Source: Dictyostelium discoideum (Eukaryota). From it: 64,000 nt of DNA. The DNA is taken from the NCBI GenBank assembly GCA_000004695.1, contig CM000152.2:4320001-4384000 (forward strand), read 5' to 3'. The notes beneath the pieces are model-generated. The model was not told the origin of the DNA, ran no database searches, and saw nothing but the letters and a program-made list of their open reading frames with translations. This document shows, one piece after another, positions 1-41,689 of this stretch. The position numbers were made by a program, and so were the translations under genes. Position 1 is the stretch's first letter; every line of letters starts with the position of its first letter.

Positions 1-1366
1 CTTGGAATTTATCATTTTGAAGTGCAGATTGATAAAATAATGATAATGCTAATTTTTCATCTTTTGGTACAGCATTACCTAATGAGCTTTGAAAAATATG
101 ACCCATTTGAAATAATGAACCTGAAAATGATTTAGATGCATAAAAGTATGGCAAGGCTTCTCTAAATTTTGATTGAAGCATCAAAGAATATCCCATATTA
201 CAAAATGATAACTTTGAAATATGTTCAAATGATAATCCAGTTATTTTTGATTGTTCTTGTAATGATTGTTTATCAAATGCTTTTAATAAATCTTGATCAC
301 TCTTTATTAAAACCTTTGGAAATTTCTCCCCTAATGGATTCTGTTCAATATATTTTTTAACTTCTTTTAAAATATCTCTTATTGGTGATGTTGTAGTTGT
401 AGTTCCCTCTGTTTCTGTTGGAGTAGTAGTAGTAGTGGTAGTGGTAGTGGTAGTGGTACTGGTAGTAGTAGGGGAAGTGGCGGTGGTTGTTGTGGTGGTA
501 TTTATTTCAGTAATTTTATCAGTTGAATTACGATCATGGTGTCTAAGAGAATCAATTCTTAATTTTAATTCACCAGCAATATCCCAACATTCTTTTTCAA
601 CACTTGTTCTTTCTTCTTTTGTTATTAAATTAATTAATAATGCAGATTGAAACATTTCAAAACTTTGTAATAATTCACCTTGAATTTTTAAAATTTGAGC
701 AGCTTTGACATATGCTTTAACCCACATTGGTCTACATGAACATGCATTTTTTGAATGGCCAAGTGCCAATGATAAAAGATCTCCATCGGAATTACCATAT
801 TTTGCAAGGAAATTGTAATGTGCCAATAAACAGGTTGATAAATTTAAACTAAGTATTGATTTAATGTACATTGAAATACCACGAATTTTCAAACCTTCAT
901 TATACATTACTTCTGCTTTATTATAATCACATTTACCATAAAAGTAATTTCCATCCTCTTTCAATTGCAATGCTTCTCTATCACAATTTTCTTGTTGTTG
1001 TTGATCTTTTGGTATTTGAAGTGTGTCAACTAAAAAATCAATTTCAATATCACCATTAAAGGTGGGTTTTAATACTGTTAAGTACTCTTTCATTAATTTT
1101 CTACCAATTTCAAAAGAGTCTTTATTTATTGGTTGTTTTTGAATTAGATATCTAACACCAGTAAAACTATTATTCTCCCATTCTCTACCTGTTTCTTTTA
1201 AATATCTTTCCTTTAATAAATCTCTTAATATTTCTTTGGCAACTTCAGCCATACATTGAAATTTATATAATGTAAATTTATTAAATTCATTTTCAGTTAT
1301 TAATTCTATAGATTTTTTTTTTTCAAAATTTTCTCTATAATTATTGTTGTTGTTGTTTTTGTGCAT
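1..1366 (-). CDS. TPR-repeat protein, N-terminal part; the gene continues past the window start
   Basis: Minus-strand ATG at 1366..1364 (MHKNNNNNYRENFEKKKSIELITENEFNK...) opens a frame that stays open to position 1. Its translation contains tetratricopeptide-like repeats (EDGNYFYGKCDYNKAEVMYNEGLKI; MWVKAYVKAAQILKIQGELLQSFEMFQSAL) followed by a Thr-rich linker. AT-rich DNA upstream of the ATG supports the start. The ORF is absent from the six-frame track only because no stop falls inside the window. Confidence 0.5.
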   Translation of the reverse strand, partial: MHKNNNNNNYRENFEKKKSIELITENEFNKFTLYKFQCMAEVAKEILRDLLKERYLKETGREWENNSFTGVRYLIQKQPINKDSFEIGRKLMKEYLTVLKPTFNGDIEIDFLVDTLQIPKDQQQQENCDREALQLKEDGNYFYGKCDYNKAEVMYNEGLKIRGISMYIKSILSLNLSTCLLAHYNFLAKYGNSDGDLLSLALGHSKNACSCRPMWVKAYVKAAQILKIQGELLQSFEMFQSALLINLITKEERTSVEKECWDIAGELKLRIDSLRHHDRNSTDKITEINTTTTTTATSPTTTSTTTTTTTTTTTTPTETEGTTTTTSPIRDILKEVKKYIEQNPLGEKFPKVLIKSDQDLLKAFDKQSLQEQSKITGLSFEHISKLSFCNMGYSLMLQSKFREALPYFYASKSFSGSLFQMGHIFQSSLGNAVPKDEKLALSLFYQSALQNDKFQ

Positions 1367-2011
1367 GATAATAAAAAAAAAGAATGTTGTGATAAAAATT
1401 TAAATTGTTGAGATGTAATTTTTAAAAAACTGAAAAAAAAAAAAAAAAAAATATTAAAAATTTGGTTTTTGTGAAAAAAAAAATAATAAAAAATTATTTT
1501 TTAAAAAATAAAAACTGAACTTCACAAAAAAAAAAAAAACAGATAGGACACAAGCAGATATTCAAGAACCCAATTAAAAAAATAAAAGAAAACTAATAGG
1601 ACGATTCCTCATGAGGATAAGATTTTTTTTTTTGAAATAATAAATTCAAAAAATATTATAAATATTATCATTATGAAGTTGAATTAAAAATAAATTTAAA
1701 GAACACTAAATCATAAAAAAAAAAAAATTGAACAACGTTGTAAATTATTATTATTTTTAATTGAATGTTAAAGGCTGGATTGATTTGAAATTTATTGGAT
1801 TGGAAAAATAGTTTTTAATACTCCCCAAAATATTTTATTACAAAAATATTAAAATTATTTAAATTTCATAAATAATTTTATTAATTATAAAACTTTTAAT
1901 AATTGCCTTTAATTTTATTTAATATTAATTTTTTGAAAAAAAAAAAAATTTAAAACAAGAAAATGTTTAATAATTGATTAAAATAAATTATGAAAATAAA
2001 TAACTTTATTT

Positions 2012-2044
<33 letters not shown>

Positions 2045-2928
2045 CTTTTTTAACAATATTAATACAACAATAAATCAATTCTATGATTAATTTAAACTAA
2101 ACCAAAATTTGGTCTTGTGAATAATATGTTTTCAGTTTTTAAAGCAGAGATTTCATTTAAAGTCATGTGAGAGTTTTTATTTACTTTCAAATCCATATTT
2201 GAACTTCCATTTAATTCAATATTTTTTGAAAATAATTTAGAGATAGAGTCTTTTTATTTTTAATTTATTTTTAATTTAAAAATTAGCATATTTTATTTAA
2301 TATTAAAAAAAAAAAAAAAATATTAATTTTTTGAAAACTTACTAAATAACATTTTTTTTTTTTTTCTTAGAGTTTTAATTTATTAAATATAATAAAAAAT
2401 AATTAATTCAAAATTTTTTCAATTGACTCTATTTATATTTAAATTATTTTACCCTATTTTACTCAAATTTTAATAATTAATATCAAAATAAAATTTTATT
2501 AAAATTTAATTTCAAAATACCATTTATTTATTTTTTATTAAAAAAATAATCTACAAAAATAAATCTACTAGGTGATAAATAGATCGATTTTTTCAAAAGA
2601 CTGGGATTTTAATATAAAAATTATTTTGCACACCAAATTTTTAAAACATTAATCAAAAAATAAAAAAAAACAATTAAAATAAATGATCACATTAAAATTT
2701 AAATTATTTATACATTTATAAACGACAATTGTCCATATATTTTTTAAACAAATACACGTAATGATTGTTTTTTTATAAATATATATTTTTTTAATATTAT
2801 GTTCTGTTTTGTGTTTTTGTTTTTTGTTTTTTTGTTTTTTTTATTTTATTTTATTTTATTTTTTTTTTTGTTTAGTTTATGTTTAATTTTAGTATGCTCT
2901 TGTTTTTTTAGATTTACTATTATTACTA

Positions 2929-11907
<8,979 letters not shown>

Positions 11908-20140: not shown

Positions 20141-20405
20141 TTATAAACGAGGTGGTGTATTTAAATTATCATTTTGTTGATCAATTTGCGTTATTTCATT
20201 TATATTTAAACCACTTTTCTTTGCTTCAGCTAATTTACGTAAATAAATTGCATTTTGAGGACCAGTTTCATTTACTAACCATGTTAATAAACCATTTTGA
20301 TTTTGTAATAATGTCCATGGTTCATCAAATTCACTAATTTTACCTGCATCAAGTACCATAATCTTATCACTATCCACTAATTATTTTATTAAATTAAAAA
20401 AAATT

Positions 20406-20473
<68 letters not shown>

Positions 20474-23277
20474 AAAAACAAAAACTTACTAATTGTATTA
20501 AGTCTATGAGCAATTGTTAAAATTGTACAATTACTAAACTTATTACGAATTGTTGCTTGAATTAATGAATCACTTTGACCATCGACAGAAGCAGTTGCTT
20601 CATCTAAAACTAAAATCTTTGGTTTTCTTAATAATGCACGAGCTAATACAATTAATTGTCTTTGTCCAACTGAAAAGTTTTCACCATTTTCTGTTACTTT
20701 GGAATTTAAGCCTTCTTCAGTTGATTTAAATACTTTTGATAATTGAATATCATCTAAAATTGACCATAATTCATGATCTGGACATTCATTGAATGGATCT
20801 AAATTTTCACGAAGTGTACCACTGAATAATACTGGATCTTGTGGAATGATTGCTAAATTTCTACGTAAATCTTTTAATCCGAATTTGGCAATATTTTCAC
20901 CATCAATTGAAATTGAACCTTCTGAAGCTTCAATTAAACGGAACAATGCTAAAACGATTGAACTTTTACCTGCACCAGTACGGCCTACAATACCAATCTT
21001 TTCTTTTGCTTTAATTTCACATGTTATACCTTTTAATACTGGATCTAATCCTTCACGATAACGCATTACTAAATTATCAAATTTAATTGACCCATTTATT
21101 GGCCAATCTGGTGATGGACGACAATCATCAATAATTTGTGGTGCTTCAACTGCTCCTCTAATATATTGTGAAATACGTTCAACTGAATTCATTTTAGTTT
21201 CAGTATCGGCTGCTTGAAGCACACCTTGATTTAAATTACTTGTGATTGAAAGTGCATAACTTAAAACTAGACCAACATCAGATGGACTAATTGTATCCTT
21301 TTTTAAAGTGATGAAAATACATGAAAAGAACACAATAAGGTTACCTAAAAAATCTAAACGTAAACCTAACCATCTATTCATTGCTTGTAGTGTTAAATAA
21401 CAATTATTATTATCATCTAAACGTTTTTGATTCTTTAATATATTCTCTTGTTGTTTTTTATATGCTCTAATTGAAACTACGCCATTTAAAGTTTCAGAGA
21501 AATGATTGAAAATTGGTGAACGTGTAATTGCTTCAATTCTTTGTAAACCTCTTGATGTATATCTATAAAAGTATTGTAAAATAAAGAATAAAATACAAAT
21601 AGGTGCCAATGGAATTAAAAGCCATGGAACAATGATTGAAATTAAAATTAATGTAGCCAATACTGATAGCATTAAAGTGAAGAATTGTGCAATTGAAGTA
21701 GCAATTAAATTATCAATAATATCTAAATCTCTTGTGAAACGATTGATAATTCTACCAAGTGGTGTTTGGTCAAAGAATGACATTGGTTTCTTTAATAATG
21801 CATTGAACAATTCATGATGAATTGAATGAGCTGCACGAACTGCATATTCAAAGAATGAGAATGTACGTACCACAGTCACAATAATCGATGCCATACCAAC
21901 ACCTATGTAAATACCTAAATTTTGATCATCAGTTAAACCAGTAGGTTCTTCACCTAATAATATTGATTCCATTCTTTCTGATGACTCTGTTTGCCAATGT
22001 GATAACCACCAATCTGTAAATGTTTTTGAACCAGTTTCTAATAAAAACAAAATCATTGCAAATAAGAATAATAAACCACCACCAGCTGTAACATATTTCC
22101 AATATACTTTTCCTGCAACAGCTCCTTGTTCCGCTTCTTCCTCTGATATCAATGTTCCATCTTTATCTGATTGTTTAGGTTTTTCAACTTTTTCTTCTTT
22201 TTTATCATCATCTTTCTTATCATCATCATCATCACTATCATCACCTTTTGTATTTTCATCAACACCATATTCTTGTAGTAATGATGCAAATTCTAATTTA
22301 GCATTAATTAATTCATAATAGGTACCTCTTTCAACGATTTCTCCTGATTTTAATACAACTGTATTATCAGCAAATGGTAAATAATTTATTTGATTTGCTA
22401 CTAAAATAACTGTTTTACTTGATAGAATACCTTTAAAACATTTATGGAATAAATGTTTACCAACATGTGAGTCCACTGCTGATAATGGATCATCTAAAAT
22501 ATAAACATCTGCATCTGAATATACTGCACGAGCAATTGAAACTCTTTGTTTTTGACCACCTGAAAGGTTAATACCACGTTCACCAATTTCTACTGAATCA
22601 CCCTGTGGAAATAATTCAATATCACGTTTTAATGCACAAACTTCTAATACTTTTTGATACCTTTCTTCATCCAATTCTTTACCAAAAATAATATTCTCTT
22701 TTAATGTTGCATTGATAATCCATGCTTGTTGAGGTACATAAGCAATTGAGCCTTTAATACCGATTTCTCCATCAATAGTCTCTAACTCTCCCAACATTGC
22801 CTGTACCAATGTCGATTTACCCGATCCGACTGAACCAACAACCATTGTTAATGATTGACCTTTTGCTTCAAAATTAATATTTTTTAAACCAAATGAATCT
22901 TCTTTCTCTTTATTCCAAGTTGTTGTTGAATTTTTCATATAAACACCATTTGGTAATGAAGGATTATCAATTTGTTGAACTTCTTTCATTTCTGGTAATA
23001 ATAGAAAATCAGTAACTCTTTTACTTGCAATTTGCATTTGAATACCCAATGCAATTAAAATTGGTAAGAAACCTAATGGGATTTTCAATAAATTTAAATA
23101 AGAGAGTGCACTAAAAATTTTACCAGCATCCAAACTTCCATTGTATCCATAATAGGTTGAAAATACTAATATTGAAGCTGCTGTTGGAATTGCACCAATC
23201 ATTGCAATTAAAATAGTTCTATAACGAGTGAACGAAAATAATAATTTAATTTCATTATTACGACGATCCAAAACCTA

Positions 23278-28097: not shown

Positions 28098-31000
28098 ATT
28101 ATTATTTTAGACCATCATATTTAAGGGCTGGATTTAGAGCATTTGGAAAATTACAATTATTAAGTATTTTTTTATATGCAATAAGTGTTGGAATCCAATT
28201 TGTTGGACCAGAAATTTTAGGTAGAATGGTTACATTTGTAGTTGAATCAAAATTAGGAACATCCACAGAAGATCCAAATATGGGATACTATTATGCATTG
28301 ATTATGTTTGGGACTGCGATGATTGGTTCATTTTGTACATACCATGCTAATAGAATTTCATTTAGAACTGGCGATCGTGTAAGTACCCCCTTTTCTTTTT
28401 TTTTTGTTTTTTTTTTTTTATTTTTTTTTTATATTTTATTAATCATTTTTTTATTTATTTTTATTTATTTTTTAGTTAAGATCAATCATTGTTTTAGATG
28501 TTTATAAAAAAGCAATTAAATTATCAAATTCAGCAAGATCAGATACATCACCAGGCCAAATTGTAAATTTGATGAGTAATGATGCTCAAAGAATGGTTGA
28601 AGTATTTGGAATGTTTAATAATGGCGCACTTGCATTACCACAAATTATTATTTGTCTTGCATTATTATATAAAAAGATTGGTTGGCCAACATTTGTAGGA
28701 TTGGGTTTAATGTTAGCTGCAATTCCATTCAATGGAATGGCTGCAAAGAAATTAACTGAAACTAGAAAATATTTAGTCTCACTTTCAGATAGTCGTGTTA
28801 AAGCTACAAATGAAATTTTACAAGCTATTAAAATTATAAAATTATATGCATGGGAAGATAGTTTTGCTAAAAAGGTATAATATATTTTTTAAATATTAGT
28901 AAGATCATTAAAAGAAATTATAATTTTTATAATATATTTATTTATTTATTTTTTTATATTTTATTTTTTATTTTTTACTATAATGATAATGATAATAATT
29001 ATAGGTTATTGAACATCGTAATAATGAAATTAAATTATTATTTTCATATAGTCGTTATAGAACTATTTTAATTGTTATTATTAGTGCTTTACCAACTGCT
29101 GCTGCTATTTTAGTAATTTCATCATATTATGGACATGAGAAATCTTTAGATGCAAGTAGAATTTTTAGTGCACTTTCATATTTAAATTTATTAAGACTTC
29201 CATTAGGTTTCTTACCAATTATAATTGCATTGGGTATTCAAATGCAAATTGCAGGTAAAAGAGTTACTGATTTTCTATTATTACCAGAAATGAAAGATAT
29301 TCAACAAATTGATAATCCTTCATTACCAAATGGTGTTTATATGAAAAATTCAACAACAACTTGGAATAAACTTAAAGAAGATTCATTTGGTTTAAAAAAT
29401 ATTAATTTTGAAGCTACTGGAACATCATTAACAATGGTTGTTGGTTCAGTCGGATCGGGTAAATCAACATTGGTACAGGCAATGTTGGGAGAGTTAGAGA
29501 TTATTGATGGAGAAATCGGTATTAAAGGCTCAATTGCTTATGTACCTCAACAAGCATGGATTATCAATGCAACATTAAAAGAGAATATTATTTTTGGTAA
29601 AGAATTGGATGAAGAAAGGTATCAAAAAGTATTAGAAGTTTGTGCATTAAAACGTGATATTGAATTATTTCCACAAGGTGATTCAGTAGAAATTGGTGAA
29701 CGTGGTATTAACCTTTCAGGTGGTCAAAAACAAAGAGTTTCAATTGCTCGTGCAGTATATTCAGATGCAGATGTTTATATTTTAGATGATCCATTATCAG
29801 CAGTGGACTCACATGTTGGTAAACATTTATTCCATAAATGTTTTAAAGGTATTCTATCAAGTAAAACAGTTATTTTAGTAGCAAATCAATTAAATTATTT
29901 ACCATTTGCTGATAATACAGTTGTATTAAAATCAGGAGAAATCGTTGAAAGAGGTACCTATTATGAATTAATTAATTCTAAATTAGAATTTTCAAGTATT
30001 CTTGAAAAGTATGGTGTTGATGAAAATGTTATATCCAAAAAAGATGACATTGATGAAGATGAAGATGAAGATCAAGATACTATTGAAAAGGTTGAAATAG
30101 ATTTAAATAAAGATGAAAAGTCTCAACCAAAATCAAAATCATCAAATACTGACGGAACATTAATATCAGAGGAAGAAAGTGAACAAGGAGCTGTTGCGGG
30201 AAAGGTATATTGGAAATATGTCACAGCTGGTGGTGGTTTATTATTCTTGGTTTCAATGATATTCTTTTTATTAGAAACTGGTTCAAAAACATTTTCAGAT
30301 TGGTGGTTATCACATTGGCAAACAGAGTCATCAGAAAGAATGGAATCAATATTACTAGGTGAGGAACCTACTGGTTTAACTGATGATCAAAATTTAGGTA
30401 TTTATATTGGTCTTGGTATGGCAGCTGTTTTCATTTCAGTTTGTAAGAATTTTATTTATTATGAATATTCAGTGTATGCATCACGTGCAATTCATCATGA
30501 GTTGTTCAATGCATTATTAAAGAAACCAATGTATTTCTTTGACCAAACACCAATTGGTAGAATTATAAATCGTTTCACTAGAGATTTAGATGGTATTGAT
30601 AATTTAATCGCAACTTCAATATCAACATTTTTAACTTTAATGTTAACTGTAATTGCAACTATTATCCTTGTTTCAATCATTGTTCCATTCCTTTTAATTC
30701 CATTGGCACCAATTAGTATAATATTCTTCTTTTTACAATACTTTTATAGATATACATCAAGAGGTTTACAAAGAATTGAAGCTATTACACGTTCACCAAT
30801 TTTCAATCATTTCTCTGAAACTTTAAATGGTGTAGTTTCAATTAGAGCATATAAAAAACAACAAGAGAATATATTAATAAATCAAAAACGTTTAGATGAT
30901 AATAATAATTGTTATTTAACACTACAAGCAATGAATAGATGGTTAGGTTTGCGTTTAGATTTTTTAGCAAATTTAATTACATTTTTTGCTTGTATTTTCA

Positions 31001-32153
31001 TTACAATCGATAAGGATACAATTAGTCCTGCAAATGTTGGTTTAGCATTAGGTTATGCACTTTCATTAACTGGTAATTTAAATTATGCAGCACTTCAAGC
31101 AGCCGATACTGAAACTAAAATGAATTCAGTTGAACGTATTTCACAATATATTAGAGGAGCAGTTGAAGCACCACAAATTATTGATGATTGTCGTCCATCA
31201 CCAGATTGGCCAATAAATGGGTCAATTAAATTTGATAATTTAGTAATGCGTTATCGTGAAGGATTAGATCCAGTATTAAAAGGTATAACATGTGAAATTA
31301 AAGCAAAAGAAAAGATTGGTATTGTAGGCCGTACTGGTGCAGGTAAAAGTTCAATCGTTTTAGCATTGTTCCGTTTAATTGAAGCTTCAGAAGGTTCAAT
31401 TTCAATTGATGGTGAAAATATTGCCAAATTCGGATTAAAAGATTTACGTAGAAATTTAGCAATCATTCCACAAGATCCAGTATTATTCAGTGGTACACTT
31501 CGTGAAAATTTAGATCCATTCAATGAACGTTCTGAAGAGGATTTATTTTCAACAATTGAAGATATTCAAATGAGTGCAGTTGTTAAATCTTTAGAGGGTG
31601 GTTTAGACTCAAAAGTAACAGAAAATGGTGAAAACTTTTCAGTTGGACAAAGACAATTAATTGTATTAGCTCGTGCATTATTAAGAAAACCAAAGATTTT
31701 AGTTTTAGACGAAGCAACTGCCTCTGTCGATGGTCAAAGTGATTCATTAATTCAAGCAACAATTCGTAATAAGTTTAGTAATTGTACAATTTTAACAATT
31801 GCTCATAGACTTAATACAATTAGTAAGTTTTTATTTTTGTTTAAAATTCTTATTTTTTATTTTTTAAAAATTCAAATATTAACTATTAATTAAAATAATT
31901 AGTGGATAGTGATAGGATTATGGTACTTGATGCAGGTAAAATTAGTGAATTTGATGAACCATGGACATTATTACAAAATCAAAATGGTTTATTAACATGG
32001 TTAGTAGATGAAACTGGTCCTCAAAATGCAATTTATTTACGTAAATTAGCTGAAGCAAAGAAAAATGGTATAGATATAAATGAAATTATGCCAATTGATA
32101 ATGAAACAACTCCAAAGGATAATATCAATACACCACCACCACCACCTCAATAA
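27748..32153 (+). CDS. ABC transporter C-family (MRP-type, short form), copy B, 5 exons, 1334 aa
   Basis: Exons: 27748-28016, 28111-28378, 28476-28874, 29005-31822, 31903-32153, with GTAAGT/GTATAA donors and AG acceptors. Phases 2/0/0/1 all reconstitute conserved sequence, for example ..AHRLNTI|[13 protein letters not shown] across the last intron. The domain content matches copy A. The upstream in-frame Met codons of track ORF 27568-28020 lie in poly-A DNA and are not used. Confidence 0.85.
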
Positions 32154-32625: not shown

Positions 32626-32672
<47 letters not shown>

Positions 32673-32683
32673 AAAAGTAGACA

Positions 32684-32740
32684 GTTGACGAGGGGTTTTT
32701 TTAATCAGTAAAAATTTGAGAGGATTTGCTGTAAGGTCAA
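32684..32740 (-). ncRNA. Class I RNA (Dictyostelium-specific small ncRNA, 57 nt)
   Basis: The minus strand reads GTTGACCTTACAGCAAATCCTCTCAAATTTTTACTGATTAAAAAACCCCTCGTCAAC. The 5' GTTGAC and 3' GTCAAC are perfectly complementary, forming the class I terminal stem. The invariant 11-nt motif CCTTACAGCAA sits immediately after the 5' stem arm. Length is within the 42-65 nt class range. A DUSE lies about 63-73 nt upstream. Confidence 0.8.
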
Positions 32741-32810
32741 CTTGTTTGTGAAACACATCAAAATATTCACCAACAAAATTTAAATTTCACCTAATTTTTT
32801 TAAAAAAATA

Positions 32811-32820
32811 TATTATGGGA
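32811..32820 (-). promoter_or_regulatory. DUSE (Dictyostelium upstream sequence element, consensus [AT]CCCA[CT]AA) for the class I RNA gene
   Basis: The plus strand attatgggat equals minus-strand ATCCCATAAT, roughly 63-73 nt upstream of the predicted class I RNA 5' end at 32740. That is the usual DUSE distance. Confidence 0.7.
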
Positions 32821-32889: not shown

Positions 32890-33400
32890 ATAGAGCATTA
32901 AATTCAAAATTGAGATATTCAAGAGTGGCTAGTTGTACCATTTGTTAAGGAGGGTTTATTGGCAGACATCTTACACAAAATCTAAATATTGTGTCTTTTG
33001 TTTTGTGATCTCTTATTATTAGATTTATTTTATAATAATTGATCATAAAAAATAGCATCTCTAGTTGAGTGTCGATTGTAATTCAGTCTTTGGAATTTCG
33101 TTAAGACAATCTGCTACTTTTTCTTTTTTTGGTACCCAAAAAAAAAAACAAGAATGGGGAGAGATGATTCTGAAATACAATAGTAATTAGCTGTTGTTTT
33201 TCTTAGCTTGATCGTTGAGGTGAGAAGGATCTTAGGATCTTTGAAGTTATTATGGTCTTTTGCTGATAAGTTTTTCAGATCTTTTGCTTTTTTGATGTAT
33301 TCTAGAGTGGCCAATTTGTGCCATTTCTTTAGAAGGGAACTGTATGATAGTTATTCATTTGTTAAAGGATCTTCACTGTATATTTGATTCCAATTCAGAA
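32890..33400. mobile_element. GC-normal, non-coding, internally repetitive block immediately downstream of tRNA-Phe; possible relic of a tRNA-targeted retroelement (TRE3-like) or an unknown ncRNA locus
   Basis: Unlike the surrounding ~85% AT intergenic DNA, this roughly 500-bp block has balanced composition and no long ORF. It contains degenerate direct repeats (agagtggctagttgtaccatttgttaaggagg at 32921 versus agagtggccaatttgtgccatttctttagaagg at 33301; agaatggggag at 33153 and 33399). It lies where TRE3 elements insert, about 50-100 bp 3' of tRNA genes. The assignment is speculative. Confidence 0.25.
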
Positions 33401-33403
33401 TGG

Positions 33404-33414
33404 GGAGTTGAACC
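33404..33414 (-). promoter_or_regulatory. External B box (ex-B) downstream of tRNA-Phe
   Basis: Minus-strand GGTTCAACTCC matches the B-box consensus GGTTCGAnTCC and sits about 36 nt 3' of the tRNA. Such extra B boxes follow many Dictyostelium tRNA genes. Confidence 0.6.
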
Positions 33415-33449
33415 TATGGTTCAGGAATACCTAATTCTAAAAAGAATTT

Positions 33450-33523
33450 TGCCTCAGGCCGGGATCGAACCAGCGACCTTAAGATCTTCAGTCTCACGCT
33501 CGTACCAACTGAGCTACTAAGGC
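33450..33523 (-). tRNA. tRNA-Phe (anticodon GAA)
   Basis: The minus strand reads GCCTTAGTAGCTCAGTTGGTACGAGCGTGAGACTGAAGATCTTAAGGTCGCTGGTTCGATCCCGGCCTGAGGCA. It folds into a cloverleaf: acceptor GCCTTAG/CTGAGGC (one T-G pair), D stem GCTC/GAGC, anticodon stem TGAGA/TCTTA with loop CTGAAGA (GAA), T stem GCTGG/CCGGC and T loop TTCGATC. No intron. Confidence 0.9.
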
Positions 33524-40503: not shown

Positions 40504-41689
40504 TTATTTTTCACCAACAATCTCATATATTTCTTTATTTGAGTAAATTTTAACTGTATTTGATGGTGGTGAATTTAAAAGTTCATTTTCCTATAAAAAA
40601 ATAAAATAAAAAAAAATTAGTAAGAGGTTCAGATTTTGTGAAAAAGAAAATAATAATAATAATAATAACTTACAGCTTCAATTCTCATTGCTTTTGCAAG
40701 TGTTGAAACCTTCATTGGTGAAACTACTTTAATAAAGACATTTTCAATCCAACGATCTCCGACTCCTCTCTATTAAAAAAAAAAAAATAAAAAAAAATAA
40801 AAAAATAAAAAAAAATAAAAAAATAAAAAATTATTAGTATTTACCAAGATATTAAAAAAAAAGATTTTATTATTATCTCCGACTCCTCTCTATTAAAAAA
40901 AAAAAAAACATACATCTAAAAATCCTGGTCTGAATATTGAGAGATAATGGAAACCTTCTTTTTTCATCTTTTCTTCGATTTCACCTTTAACTTTTGGATA
41001 AAGGAAAAATGAATTTGGATTTGAACCTGTTGATGTTAATAAATGCATAGAACGTACACCAGATTCTTTTGATAGGTCTGCAAATTTTGATGAAATACCT
41101 AATTCAATCTCTCTGAATCTTTCTGCACTACCTATAATAGTAAAAAAATTTATTTAGTTTTTTTTTTTTCTTTTTTTTTTATTCCAATTTCCCTCTATAT
41201 AAATAAAATTAAAGAATTTACCTGCTTGTTTTCTAGTTGTACCCAAAACATTAAATGCAGCATCCTTATCTTTAAATTCTTCTTTATAATCTTCTAATTT
41301 ATCAAAGTCAACTACAACTTGTTTTAATTTTTCTAATAAATAAATAAATAAATAAATAAATTAGATAATTAATGCTTTTTTAGAAAATATATATATAAAA
41401 TTAATATACCATTTTGGATAGAAAGATCTTCTTTTCTAACTAAAGATGTAACTTGAACGAATTTTGAGTCAATCAACTCACGAATTAAATGTTTTCCAGT
41501 TGCACCGGTACCACCAATGACTATACACTTTGCACCTTGACTCATGTTGTAATATTTGAAATTGTATGGTTTGTAATTTGATATCTCTGAGTTTTCACTT
41601 ATTGTATTAATGAAATAACCACTATTATTATAAATATATTGAAATATAAATGCAATACTTGTTATTAAAATAAAATAAAACTTTTTCAT
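40504..41689 (-). CDS. HTATIP2/TIP30 (CC3)-like NAD(P)-binding oxidoreductase with an N-terminal signal/anchor, 5 exons
   Basis: Exon 1 is 41689-~41410 (MKKFYFILITSIAFIFQ...GAKCIVIGGTGATGKHLIRELIDSKFVQVTSLVRKEDLSIQNG). Later exons encode EKLKQVVVDFDKLEDYKEEFKDKDAAFNVLGTTRKQAG, SAEGFREIELGISSKFADLSKESGVRSMHLLTSTGSNPNSFFLYPKVKGEIEEKMKKEGFHYLSIFRPGFLD, RGVGDRWIENVFIKVVSPMKVSTLAKAMRIEA and ENELLNSPPSNTVKIYSNKEIYEIVGEK. These align along the length of human HTATIP2 (..[69 protein letters not shown]..). Confidence 0.7.

Follow-up and report, generated by a model that had tools for sequence, protein, structure and literature searches.

In a 64,000-nucleotide (nt) stretch of the Dictyostelium discoideum genome (assembly GCA_000004695.1, contig CM000152.2, positions 4,320,001 to 4,384,000 of the forward strand; hereafter the window, in whose coordinates all positions are given), a tRNA-Phe(GAA) gene is followed by a block of comparatively GC-rich sequence at ~32900-33400. 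Our analysis supports the identification of this block as two fragments, in the same orientation, of the 3′ region of the second open reading frame (ORF2) of a poly(A)-type, non-long terminal repeat (non-LTR) retrotransposon of the TRE3 type. Very probably the two are the debris of separate TRE3-type integrations in the usual landing zone behind tRNA-Phe, both in tRNA orientation. TRE3 elements insert 40-150 bp downstream of a tRNA gene, sharing its orientation, with an external B box (ex-B box) as landmark (PMC5911963; PMC5006619). A preliminary description of this DNA had proposed one truncated TRE3-type element or fragment placed behind the tRNA gene by such B-box landmarks. ORF2 homology, placement in an element family and a target-site duplication all support the retroelement footprint, but the single element has given way to two fragments of different age. 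The direct observations that carry this reading are the homology, the duplication and its empty site, the orientation and distances of the fragments, and the full-length relatives that encode a reverse transcriptase (RT). As tRNA-Phe lies on the minus strand, ‘downstream’ means towards lower window coordinates, and the features of the locus are listed here in that direction.

33450-33523, minus strand: tRNA-Phe(GAA) gene, the RNA polymerase III (Pol III) target, called by ARAGORN and by Rfam (RF00005, 62.5 bits)
33461-33471, minus strand: internal B box of tRNA-Phe, GGTTCGATCCC, from a B-box pattern search
33439-33443, minus strand: T5 run just past tRNA-Phe, read from the sequence
33404-33414, minus strand: ex-B box, GGTTCAACTCC, 35 nt past the end of tRNA-Phe, from the same pattern search
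33397-33407, minus strand: tRNA-proximal copy of an 11-nt duplication, CTCCCCATTCT, overlapping the last 4 nt of the ex-B box
33162-33396, minus strand: fragment A, 235 nt of the 3′ region of a TRE3-type ORF2, corresponding to positions 4757-4991 of a reference element of 5149 nt
33292-33337, minus strand: copy 1 of a 46-nt repeat, the KKWHKLATLEYI segment of ORF2 within fragment A
33151-33161, minus strand: distal copy of the 11-nt duplication; it opens with CTCCC, the same 5 nt with which the element continues
33118-33150, minus strand: original flank between the target site of fragment A and fragment B, with a T11 run, GGGTACC and an A-rich run (AAAAAAAGAAAAAG)
~32910-33117, minus strand: fragment B, a degenerate TRE3-type ORF2 remnant found by blastn and blastx
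32910-32954, minus strand: copy 2 of the 46-nt repeat, which closes fragment B at its 3′ end and is the same ORF2 segment as copy 1

Fragment A begins 53 nt past tRNA-Phe on the strand of the tRNA and differs from the reference element by only 6 mismatches in 235 nt, with 97.0-97.4% identity to three independent copies. Its near-identical relatives, some full-length and some truncated, are found behind other tRNA genes of D. discoideum assemblies. It is cut off at both its 5′ and its 3′ end, and one of the mismatches creates an in-frame TAA. A 66-amino-acid (aa) open reading frame (ORF) runs through the block on the tRNA strand (33314-33114), and its translation matches three Dictyostelium ORFs of 99-100 aa. 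The identity is 80-82% for the two D. citrinum ORFs and 58% for the D. discoideum one. These short ORFs are in turn the tail of ORF2 models of 277 aa and 988 aa, and they make up the ends of poly(A)-terminated elements that lie behind tRNA-Thr, tRNA-Val and tRNA-Leu. The block had been described as non-coding, which holds insofar as no intact gene is present; it is nevertheless decayed coding sequence, with fragment A reading as an ORF2 C-terminus interrupted by the single TAA.

Fragment B is far more degraded. By blastn it aligns to positions 4239-4394 of the reference element at 70-71% identity, and by blastx it matches the proteins P0155 (aa 727-773), P0011 and P0004 in two frames with E ~5e-8. 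It spans approximately aa 720-775 of the 988-aa ORF2 model (PKTE.Q..LN / KTKDTIFRFCVRCLPIN). An internal deletion joins the ‘...FRFCVRCLPIN’ part to a ‘KLATLEY’ segment, after which the fragment ends, and it carries frameshifts and several in-frame stops.

Comparison with orthologous loci allowed us to identify fragment A as an insertion. The gene adjoining tRNA-Phe splices to a protein exactly identical to D. discoideum RacE (P0143), and RacE was used to obtain the orthologous locus from seven other assemblies. In 7/7 of them a tRNA-Phe lies downstream of racE, identical to that of the window. Fragment A is absent from two of these loci, L006 and L007, of which L007 comes from an assembly deposited as D. 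discoideum. In both, the alignment covers window positions 33558-33397 and restarts at 33161 with an overlap of 11 nt, so that a single 11-mer stands where the window has two. In the multiple alignment L006 and L007 read ...GGTTCGA-CTCCCCATTCTT-ATTTTTTT..., whereas the window reads ...GGTTCAA-CTCCCCATTCT, then the 235 nt of fragment A, then CTCCCCATTCT-TGTTTTT.... The exact 11-mer on both sides of fragment A, together with its single copy in L006 and L007, indicates that fragment A is an insertion and that the empty site persists in other isolates. The plus-strand form of this 11-mer is agaatggggag, which the preliminary description had reported as occurring twice; indeed, it has exactly two copies in the window (33151-33161 and 33397-33407) where none is expected. 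The flank at 33118-33150 is conserved in both empty-site alleles. Its A-run, directly 5′ of fragment B, could be what remains of the poly(A) of another element since lost, or it could be simple flank.

The same two alleles date fragment B. L006 and L007 both contain it, joined internally at the same point and with 91% column identity to the window, and because it is common to all three it must be older than the split of these lineages. In the allele that preceded fragment A it starts ~98 nt past the tRNA, ~45 nt downstream of the ex-B box. One tRNA gene has thus been hit twice at different times, with the younger hit closer to it. Other species lack the block at this locus, and it is not unique sequence. 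Its presence there as unique sequence had been named as what would speak against a retroelement; what is found is that only fragment B is shared, and only with the closest isolates. The target-site duplication that had been anticipated was found for fragment A (11 nt, with the empty site in two isolates) and was not recognizable for fragment B.

The direct repeats that first drew attention to the block follow from its composition. A repeat of about 33 nt had been noted at 32921 and 33301; it is real but longer, with 46 nt at 32910-32954 and 33292-33337. Its two copies are 78% identical with one indel, and their local alignment score of 24 compares with 11.7 +/- 1.7 in 500 shuffles, 0/500 of which reached 24. 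The repeat arises because the same ORF2 segment has been retained in both fragments, and no further copies of the block were found within the window. What had been called degenerate direct repeats are therefore not an independent feature, being this shared segment plus the target-site duplication of fragment A. Two repeat pairs within 500 bp could also mean that unique intergenic DNA was duplicated locally, in tandem or as a segment, but we give that reading almost no credence: the pairs differ in spacing (382 and 246 nt) and in identity (78% and 100%), the 46-mer maps to the same element position in both fragments, and the 11-mer brackets an insertion that is missing from the empty-site alleles.

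Relatives of the block at other loci reveal the element from which it derives. At the loci encoding P0003 and P0001 the matching ORF follows closely on a tRNA gene of the same strand: tRNA-Thr(AGT) in L001, tRNA-Val(AAC) in L002. In L002 a longer element-like stretch, of which the ORF is the tail, finishes in a long poly(A) run, and a composite translation of this stretch matched 19 Dictyostelium proteins, including the continuous 277-aa ORF P0004 at 91%. P0004 belongs to a 90%-identity cluster of 11 members, among them eight AX4 gene models and the 988-aa P0155, and the family of fragment A is multi-copy in AX4. Two proteins within this cluster, P0155 and P0149, contain the reverse transcriptase domain RVT_1 (E 7.7e-34 and 2.1e-34, respectively). 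Additionally, P0004 and its relatives carry a CCHC motif, CPLCKEDMSKDPYGHLFFSC (CX2CX10HX4C); fragment B ends just before the position of this motif and fragment A lies after it. A second ORF2 lineage, 55-65% identical, comprises P0003, P0006, P0007, P0011, P0019 and P0022.

The most complete copies come from L011, the locus of P0155, which belongs with L003 and L012 to the assembly GCA_054883475. Here a tRNA-Leu(CAA) and its ex-B box are followed by three tandem copies in tRNA orientation (1131-10071). Copy 2 is near full length at 5149 nt, with an ORF1 of 417 aa and an ORF2 of ~1210 aa in the -1 frame (5476-9107, with one frameshift), and ends in a 3′ untranslated region (UTR) of ~105 nt and a poly(A) tail. 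In copy 1 a 5′ module of ~38 nt is duplicated (AAAAAACCGTACCGCGATCAAGAGGATACAAGATAC, twice) and an internal deletion joins reference positions 2557 and 4844, while copy 3 is 5′-truncated and abuts the poly(A) of copy 2. A copy neighbouring the 5149-nt one has ~77 nt of additional 5′ sequence. L003 (tRNA-Leu(TAA)) and L012 (tRNA-Ala(AGC)) hold 5′-truncated copies that are 99% identical. Poly(A) tails are present in L002, L003 and L011, and the distance from tRNA to element is ~55 nt in L003, 78 nt in L011, 101 nt in L001, 124 nt in L012 and ~140 nt in L002. In 5/5 related loci (L001, L002, L003, L011 and L012) the element is on the tRNA strand, as are both fragments in the window.

The reading as TRE3 rests on two-ORF, RT-bearing relatives, the CCHC motif, the poly(A) tail and a placement downstream of tRNA genes, in their orientation, that matches the published behavior of TRE3. 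The -1 frame of ORF2 is likewise a described TRE3 feature (PMC5911963), and the wider setting agrees as well: 61% of D. discoideum tRNA genes carry a TRE, and tandems have been noted (PMC5006619). As regards annotation, TRE3 ORF2 tails in AX4 and in recent Dictyostelium assemblies appear as ‘hypothetical proteins’ (among P0001-P0022 and P0146-P0155), and some of these predictions seem to be fused to unrelated-looking host sequence, such as P0018, with a PF14216 domain, and P0017.

Several points weigh against this reading. In the protein databases the relatives of the block are all labelled ‘hypothetical protein’, and the name TRE3 draws on structure, on behavior and on the published statement that a non-LTR element of D. 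discoideum is either TRE5 or TRE3. The apurinic/apyrimidinic-type endonuclease domain expected at the N-terminus of ORF2 is matched weakly, by Exo_endo_phos in P0020 (E 0.0025), with 18.1 bits, below the curated 24.5 cut-off. Fragment B has lost its 3′ end and has no poly(A) tail, no target-site duplication could be recognized around it, and its subfamily is ambiguous from sequence comparison, as blastx and tblastn support two ORF2 lineages equally. Fragment A, too, has no poly(A) and stops ~150 nt short of the element's end, without the 3′ UTR; such 3′ truncation is not typical of target-primed reverse transcription.

An LTR retrotransposon is one rival reading of the block. Skipper-2, a Ty3/gypsy LTR element, uses the same landing zone downstream of tRNA genes (PMC5006619), and the orthologous tRNA-Phe of L008 has an Integrase_H2C2 gene downstream of it (8337-9384), suggestive of an LTR element. 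Skipper-2, however, has LTRs and an integrase, whereas both fragments in the window align to the ORF2 of a poly(A)-terminated, RT-bearing element that has no LTRs, and the window block showed no resemblance to an integrase or an LTR. That the block is a remnant or solo LTR of Skipper-2, or of DGLT-A, is for these reasons hardly credible.

It could also be asked whether the block is functional host sequence, either a small protein gene or a non-coding RNA (ncRNA) or regulatory module between the tRNA gene and a neighbouring Class I RNA gene. Its coding-like GC and the 66-aa ORF would fit a gene, and so would the fact that gene callers list homologous ORFs of 99-100 aa, in D. citrinum and in some D. 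discoideum assemblies, as hypothetical proteins. Those ORFs are merely the tail of the 277-aa and 988-aa ORF2 models, though, and copies occur at many unrelated tRNA loci. Moreover, fragment A has an in-frame stop and fragment B several, fragment A is missing from other isolates, and the orthologous locus of other species lacks the block as a whole. In Rfam the block has no match, even when E values up to 10 are admitted: at the gathering threshold and at this relaxed setting the only hits were the tRNA and, outside the block, the Class I RNA, with weak matches to PreQ1, small nucleolar RNA (snoRNA) and enterobacterial small RNA families being chance. We consider a host function very unlikely. 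A candidate ncRNA gene in the block, prompted by ACCCAAAA at ~33135 on the plus strand, which resembles a Dictyostelium upstream sequence element (DUSE), or by box C/D motifs, was dropped, since ORF2 homology explains the whole block.

Within the TRE3-type reading, a likely subfamily can be named for fragment A. Dd_TRE3-A has been described as an element of 5229 bp with 67 copies located 14-228 bp downstream of tRNA genes (PMC5006619, Table 1). TRE3-A (formerly Tdd-3) is the most abundant TRE3 of D. discoideum, and the family of fragment A is likewise multi-copy, has two ORFs and forms tandems; the 5229 bp of TRE3-A compare with the 5149 nt of the L011 copy plus ~77 nt. Fragment A is likely TRE3-A, judging from the length of ~5.15-5.23 kb, the -1-frame ORF2 and the abundance. 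Set against a full-length TRE3-A, fragment A is 235 nt without the element ends, and fragment B is ~210 nt, internally deleted and decayed. TRE3-B, at 5279 bp, is also compatible in length with the family of fragment A, and TRE3-B, TRE3-C and TRE3-D share their targeting and architecture with the family of the window fragments. Fragment B has residues in common with the second ORF2 lineage, such as EIHKTD (in the L007 allele) and KTKDT, and fits both lineages about equally.

TRE5-A (DRE) belongs to the same superfamily, is also a tRNA-targeted non-LTR element and has apurinic/apyrimidinic endonuclease, RT and zinc finger domains (APE-RT-ZF) in its ORF2. TRE5 elements differ from the fragments in the window by their placement: they face the opposite way to the tRNA gene and lie ~50 bp upstream of it (PMC5911963), whereas the window fragments are downstream in the same orientation. 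Remnants of the kind seen here are already known and ordinary in D. discoideum. The only mildly unusual detail is a duplication-flanked, poly(A)-less insertion for which an empty-site allele is available. The significance of the locus is thus mainly one of annotation, TRE3 remnants downstream of tRNA genes being a textbook feature of this genome. Still, the pair of filled and empty sites, with an 11-nt duplication at the edge of the ex-B box, locates one TRE3 cleavage site with single-nucleotide precision.

There is a possible history that accounts for both fragments, with targeting and priming inferred from publications on TRE and L1 elements (PMC5911963, PMC5006619). The older fragment B would have landed ~98 nt behind the tRNA, and would later have lost its 3′ end and an internal piece while decaying to ~70% identity. 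The younger fragment A would have landed closer in, 53 nt behind the gene and right where the ex-B box ends on its 3′ side; successive hits of this kind on one tRNA gene would build tandems. In each case the Pol III/TFIIIC complex, bound to both the internal and the external B box, may position the ORF2 endonuclease, which would nick the target, and the nicked DNA would prime reverse transcription. For fragment A, a second cut staggered by 11 nt would then give rise to the CTCCCCATTCT duplication.

The missing tail of fragment A could be explained in two ways, both of which involve the CTCCC that is shared by the element and the duplication. At the 3′ junction of fragment A, where the element continues as ...CATCT-CTCCC-AAATATT..., it meets the target at CTCCC, so that these 5 nt form a junction microhomology. 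In the first model the nicked plus strand, ...AGAATGGGGAG-3′ (...GGGAG-3′), would have primed on an internal CUCCC of the element RNA instead of on the poly(A). In the second, slippage between the CTCCC of the element and that of the distal duplication would later have removed ~150 nt and the poly(A) from a normal insertion. The two models give the same final sequence and fit equally, and we see the choice between them as roughly balanced. That fragment A is a one-step product, with a nick at the ex-B edge and ...GGGAG-3′ primed on the internal CUCCC ~150 nt before the poly(A), is a possibility that we hold tentatively, at somewhat less than an even chance. If true, it would be a natural example of TRE3 priming that needs only ~5 nt of complementarity between target and RNA and no poly(A).

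Atypical L1 insertions include internal priming and 3′-truncated, poly(A)-less forms. They resemble fragment A in their junction microhomology and missing poly(A), whereas fragment A keeps a clean 11-nt duplication. The same features bear on a further explanation, in which fragment A is TRE3 complementary DNA (cDNA) or DNA captured during double-strand-break repair, or the product of ectopic gene conversion, beside the ex-B box. The lack of both element ends and of the poly(A), and the 5-nt microhomology at the 3′ junction, are typical of repair capture. Conversely, the clean 11-nt duplication, of which the empty alleles have one copy, speaks for a staggered cut rather than a blunt break, and the orientation and position of fragment A fit TRE3 targeting. 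We therefore regard repair capture as unlikely and favor TRE3 integration for fragment A as well as for fragment B.

In at least three other lineages (L004, L005 and L010) the orthologous tRNA-Phe bears retroelement remnants that do not align with the block. L005 (7180-7406) and L010 (7837-7914) have other TRE3-like 3′ fragments downstream of tRNA-Phe, not alignable with the window block. In L004, from D. firmibasis, an RT-like ORF2 fragment (10084-10686) with 27-30% aa identity to TRE3 ORF2 lies 55 bp upstream of tRNA-Phe (10741-10814) on the opposite strand, a TRE5-like placement that was seen at this orthologue only.

The target gene itself was correctly named in the preliminary description as tRNA-Phe(GAA), and ARAGORN places it on the minus strand, with Rfam also detecting the tRNA. 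The T5 run at 33439-33443 is likely its Pol III terminator, a role suggested by position and sequence. The ex-B box had also been recognized, at a distance of 36 nt where we count 35. The pattern GGTTCRANNCC has 3 matches in the 64-kb window, against 0.27 expected, and one of these is the internal B box of tRNA-Phe. A B-box-like motif is found ~35 nt past the orthologous tRNA-Phe in 6/7 other Dictyostelium assemblies, being degenerate in L010. The third match in the window, GGTTCAAATCC at 41017-41027 on the minus strand, sits in coding-like sequence with no tRNA nearby and is probably due to chance. The block had further been described as strikingly non-AT-rich, in agreement with its GC content of 28-39% across ~32900-33400, compared to 14-20% in the flanks and 22% in the whole window.

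On the far side of the block, ~170 nt beyond fragment B, the window contains a complete Class I RNA gene, whose features follow.

32813-32820, minus strand: DUSE-like TCCCATAA for the Class I RNA gene
32754-32759, minus strand: TGTG motif, ~63 nt after the DUSE
32682-32741, minus strand: complete Class I RNA gene (Rfam RF01414, 50.8 bits versus a gathering score of 41.5)
~32630-32671, minus strand: long T-run past the Class I RNA gene

The gene has the CCTTACAGCAA motif and a GTTGAC/GTCAAC stem, and the arrangement of DUSE, TGTG motif and T-run agrees with the published architecture of Class I RNA genes (PMC7919456). Rfam also finds a Class I RNA gene in L006 (7736-7796, plus strand) and L007 (7740-7800, plus strand), in the same orientation as in the window, and in L005 (7695-7754, minus strand), where it is inverted relative to the tRNA. 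In L010 a blastn match to the Class I RNA gene only, at 9074-9231, is likewise inverted and falls below the Rfam gathering score. The DUSE of L006 and L007 reads TACCATAA, with two Cs, versus TCCCATAA in the window. Further out, the window holds two closely related, divergent ABCC-type ABC-transporter paralogues at 20404-23271 (minus strand) and 29230-31893 (plus strand), the second of which ends ~530 bp from the Class I RNA gene.

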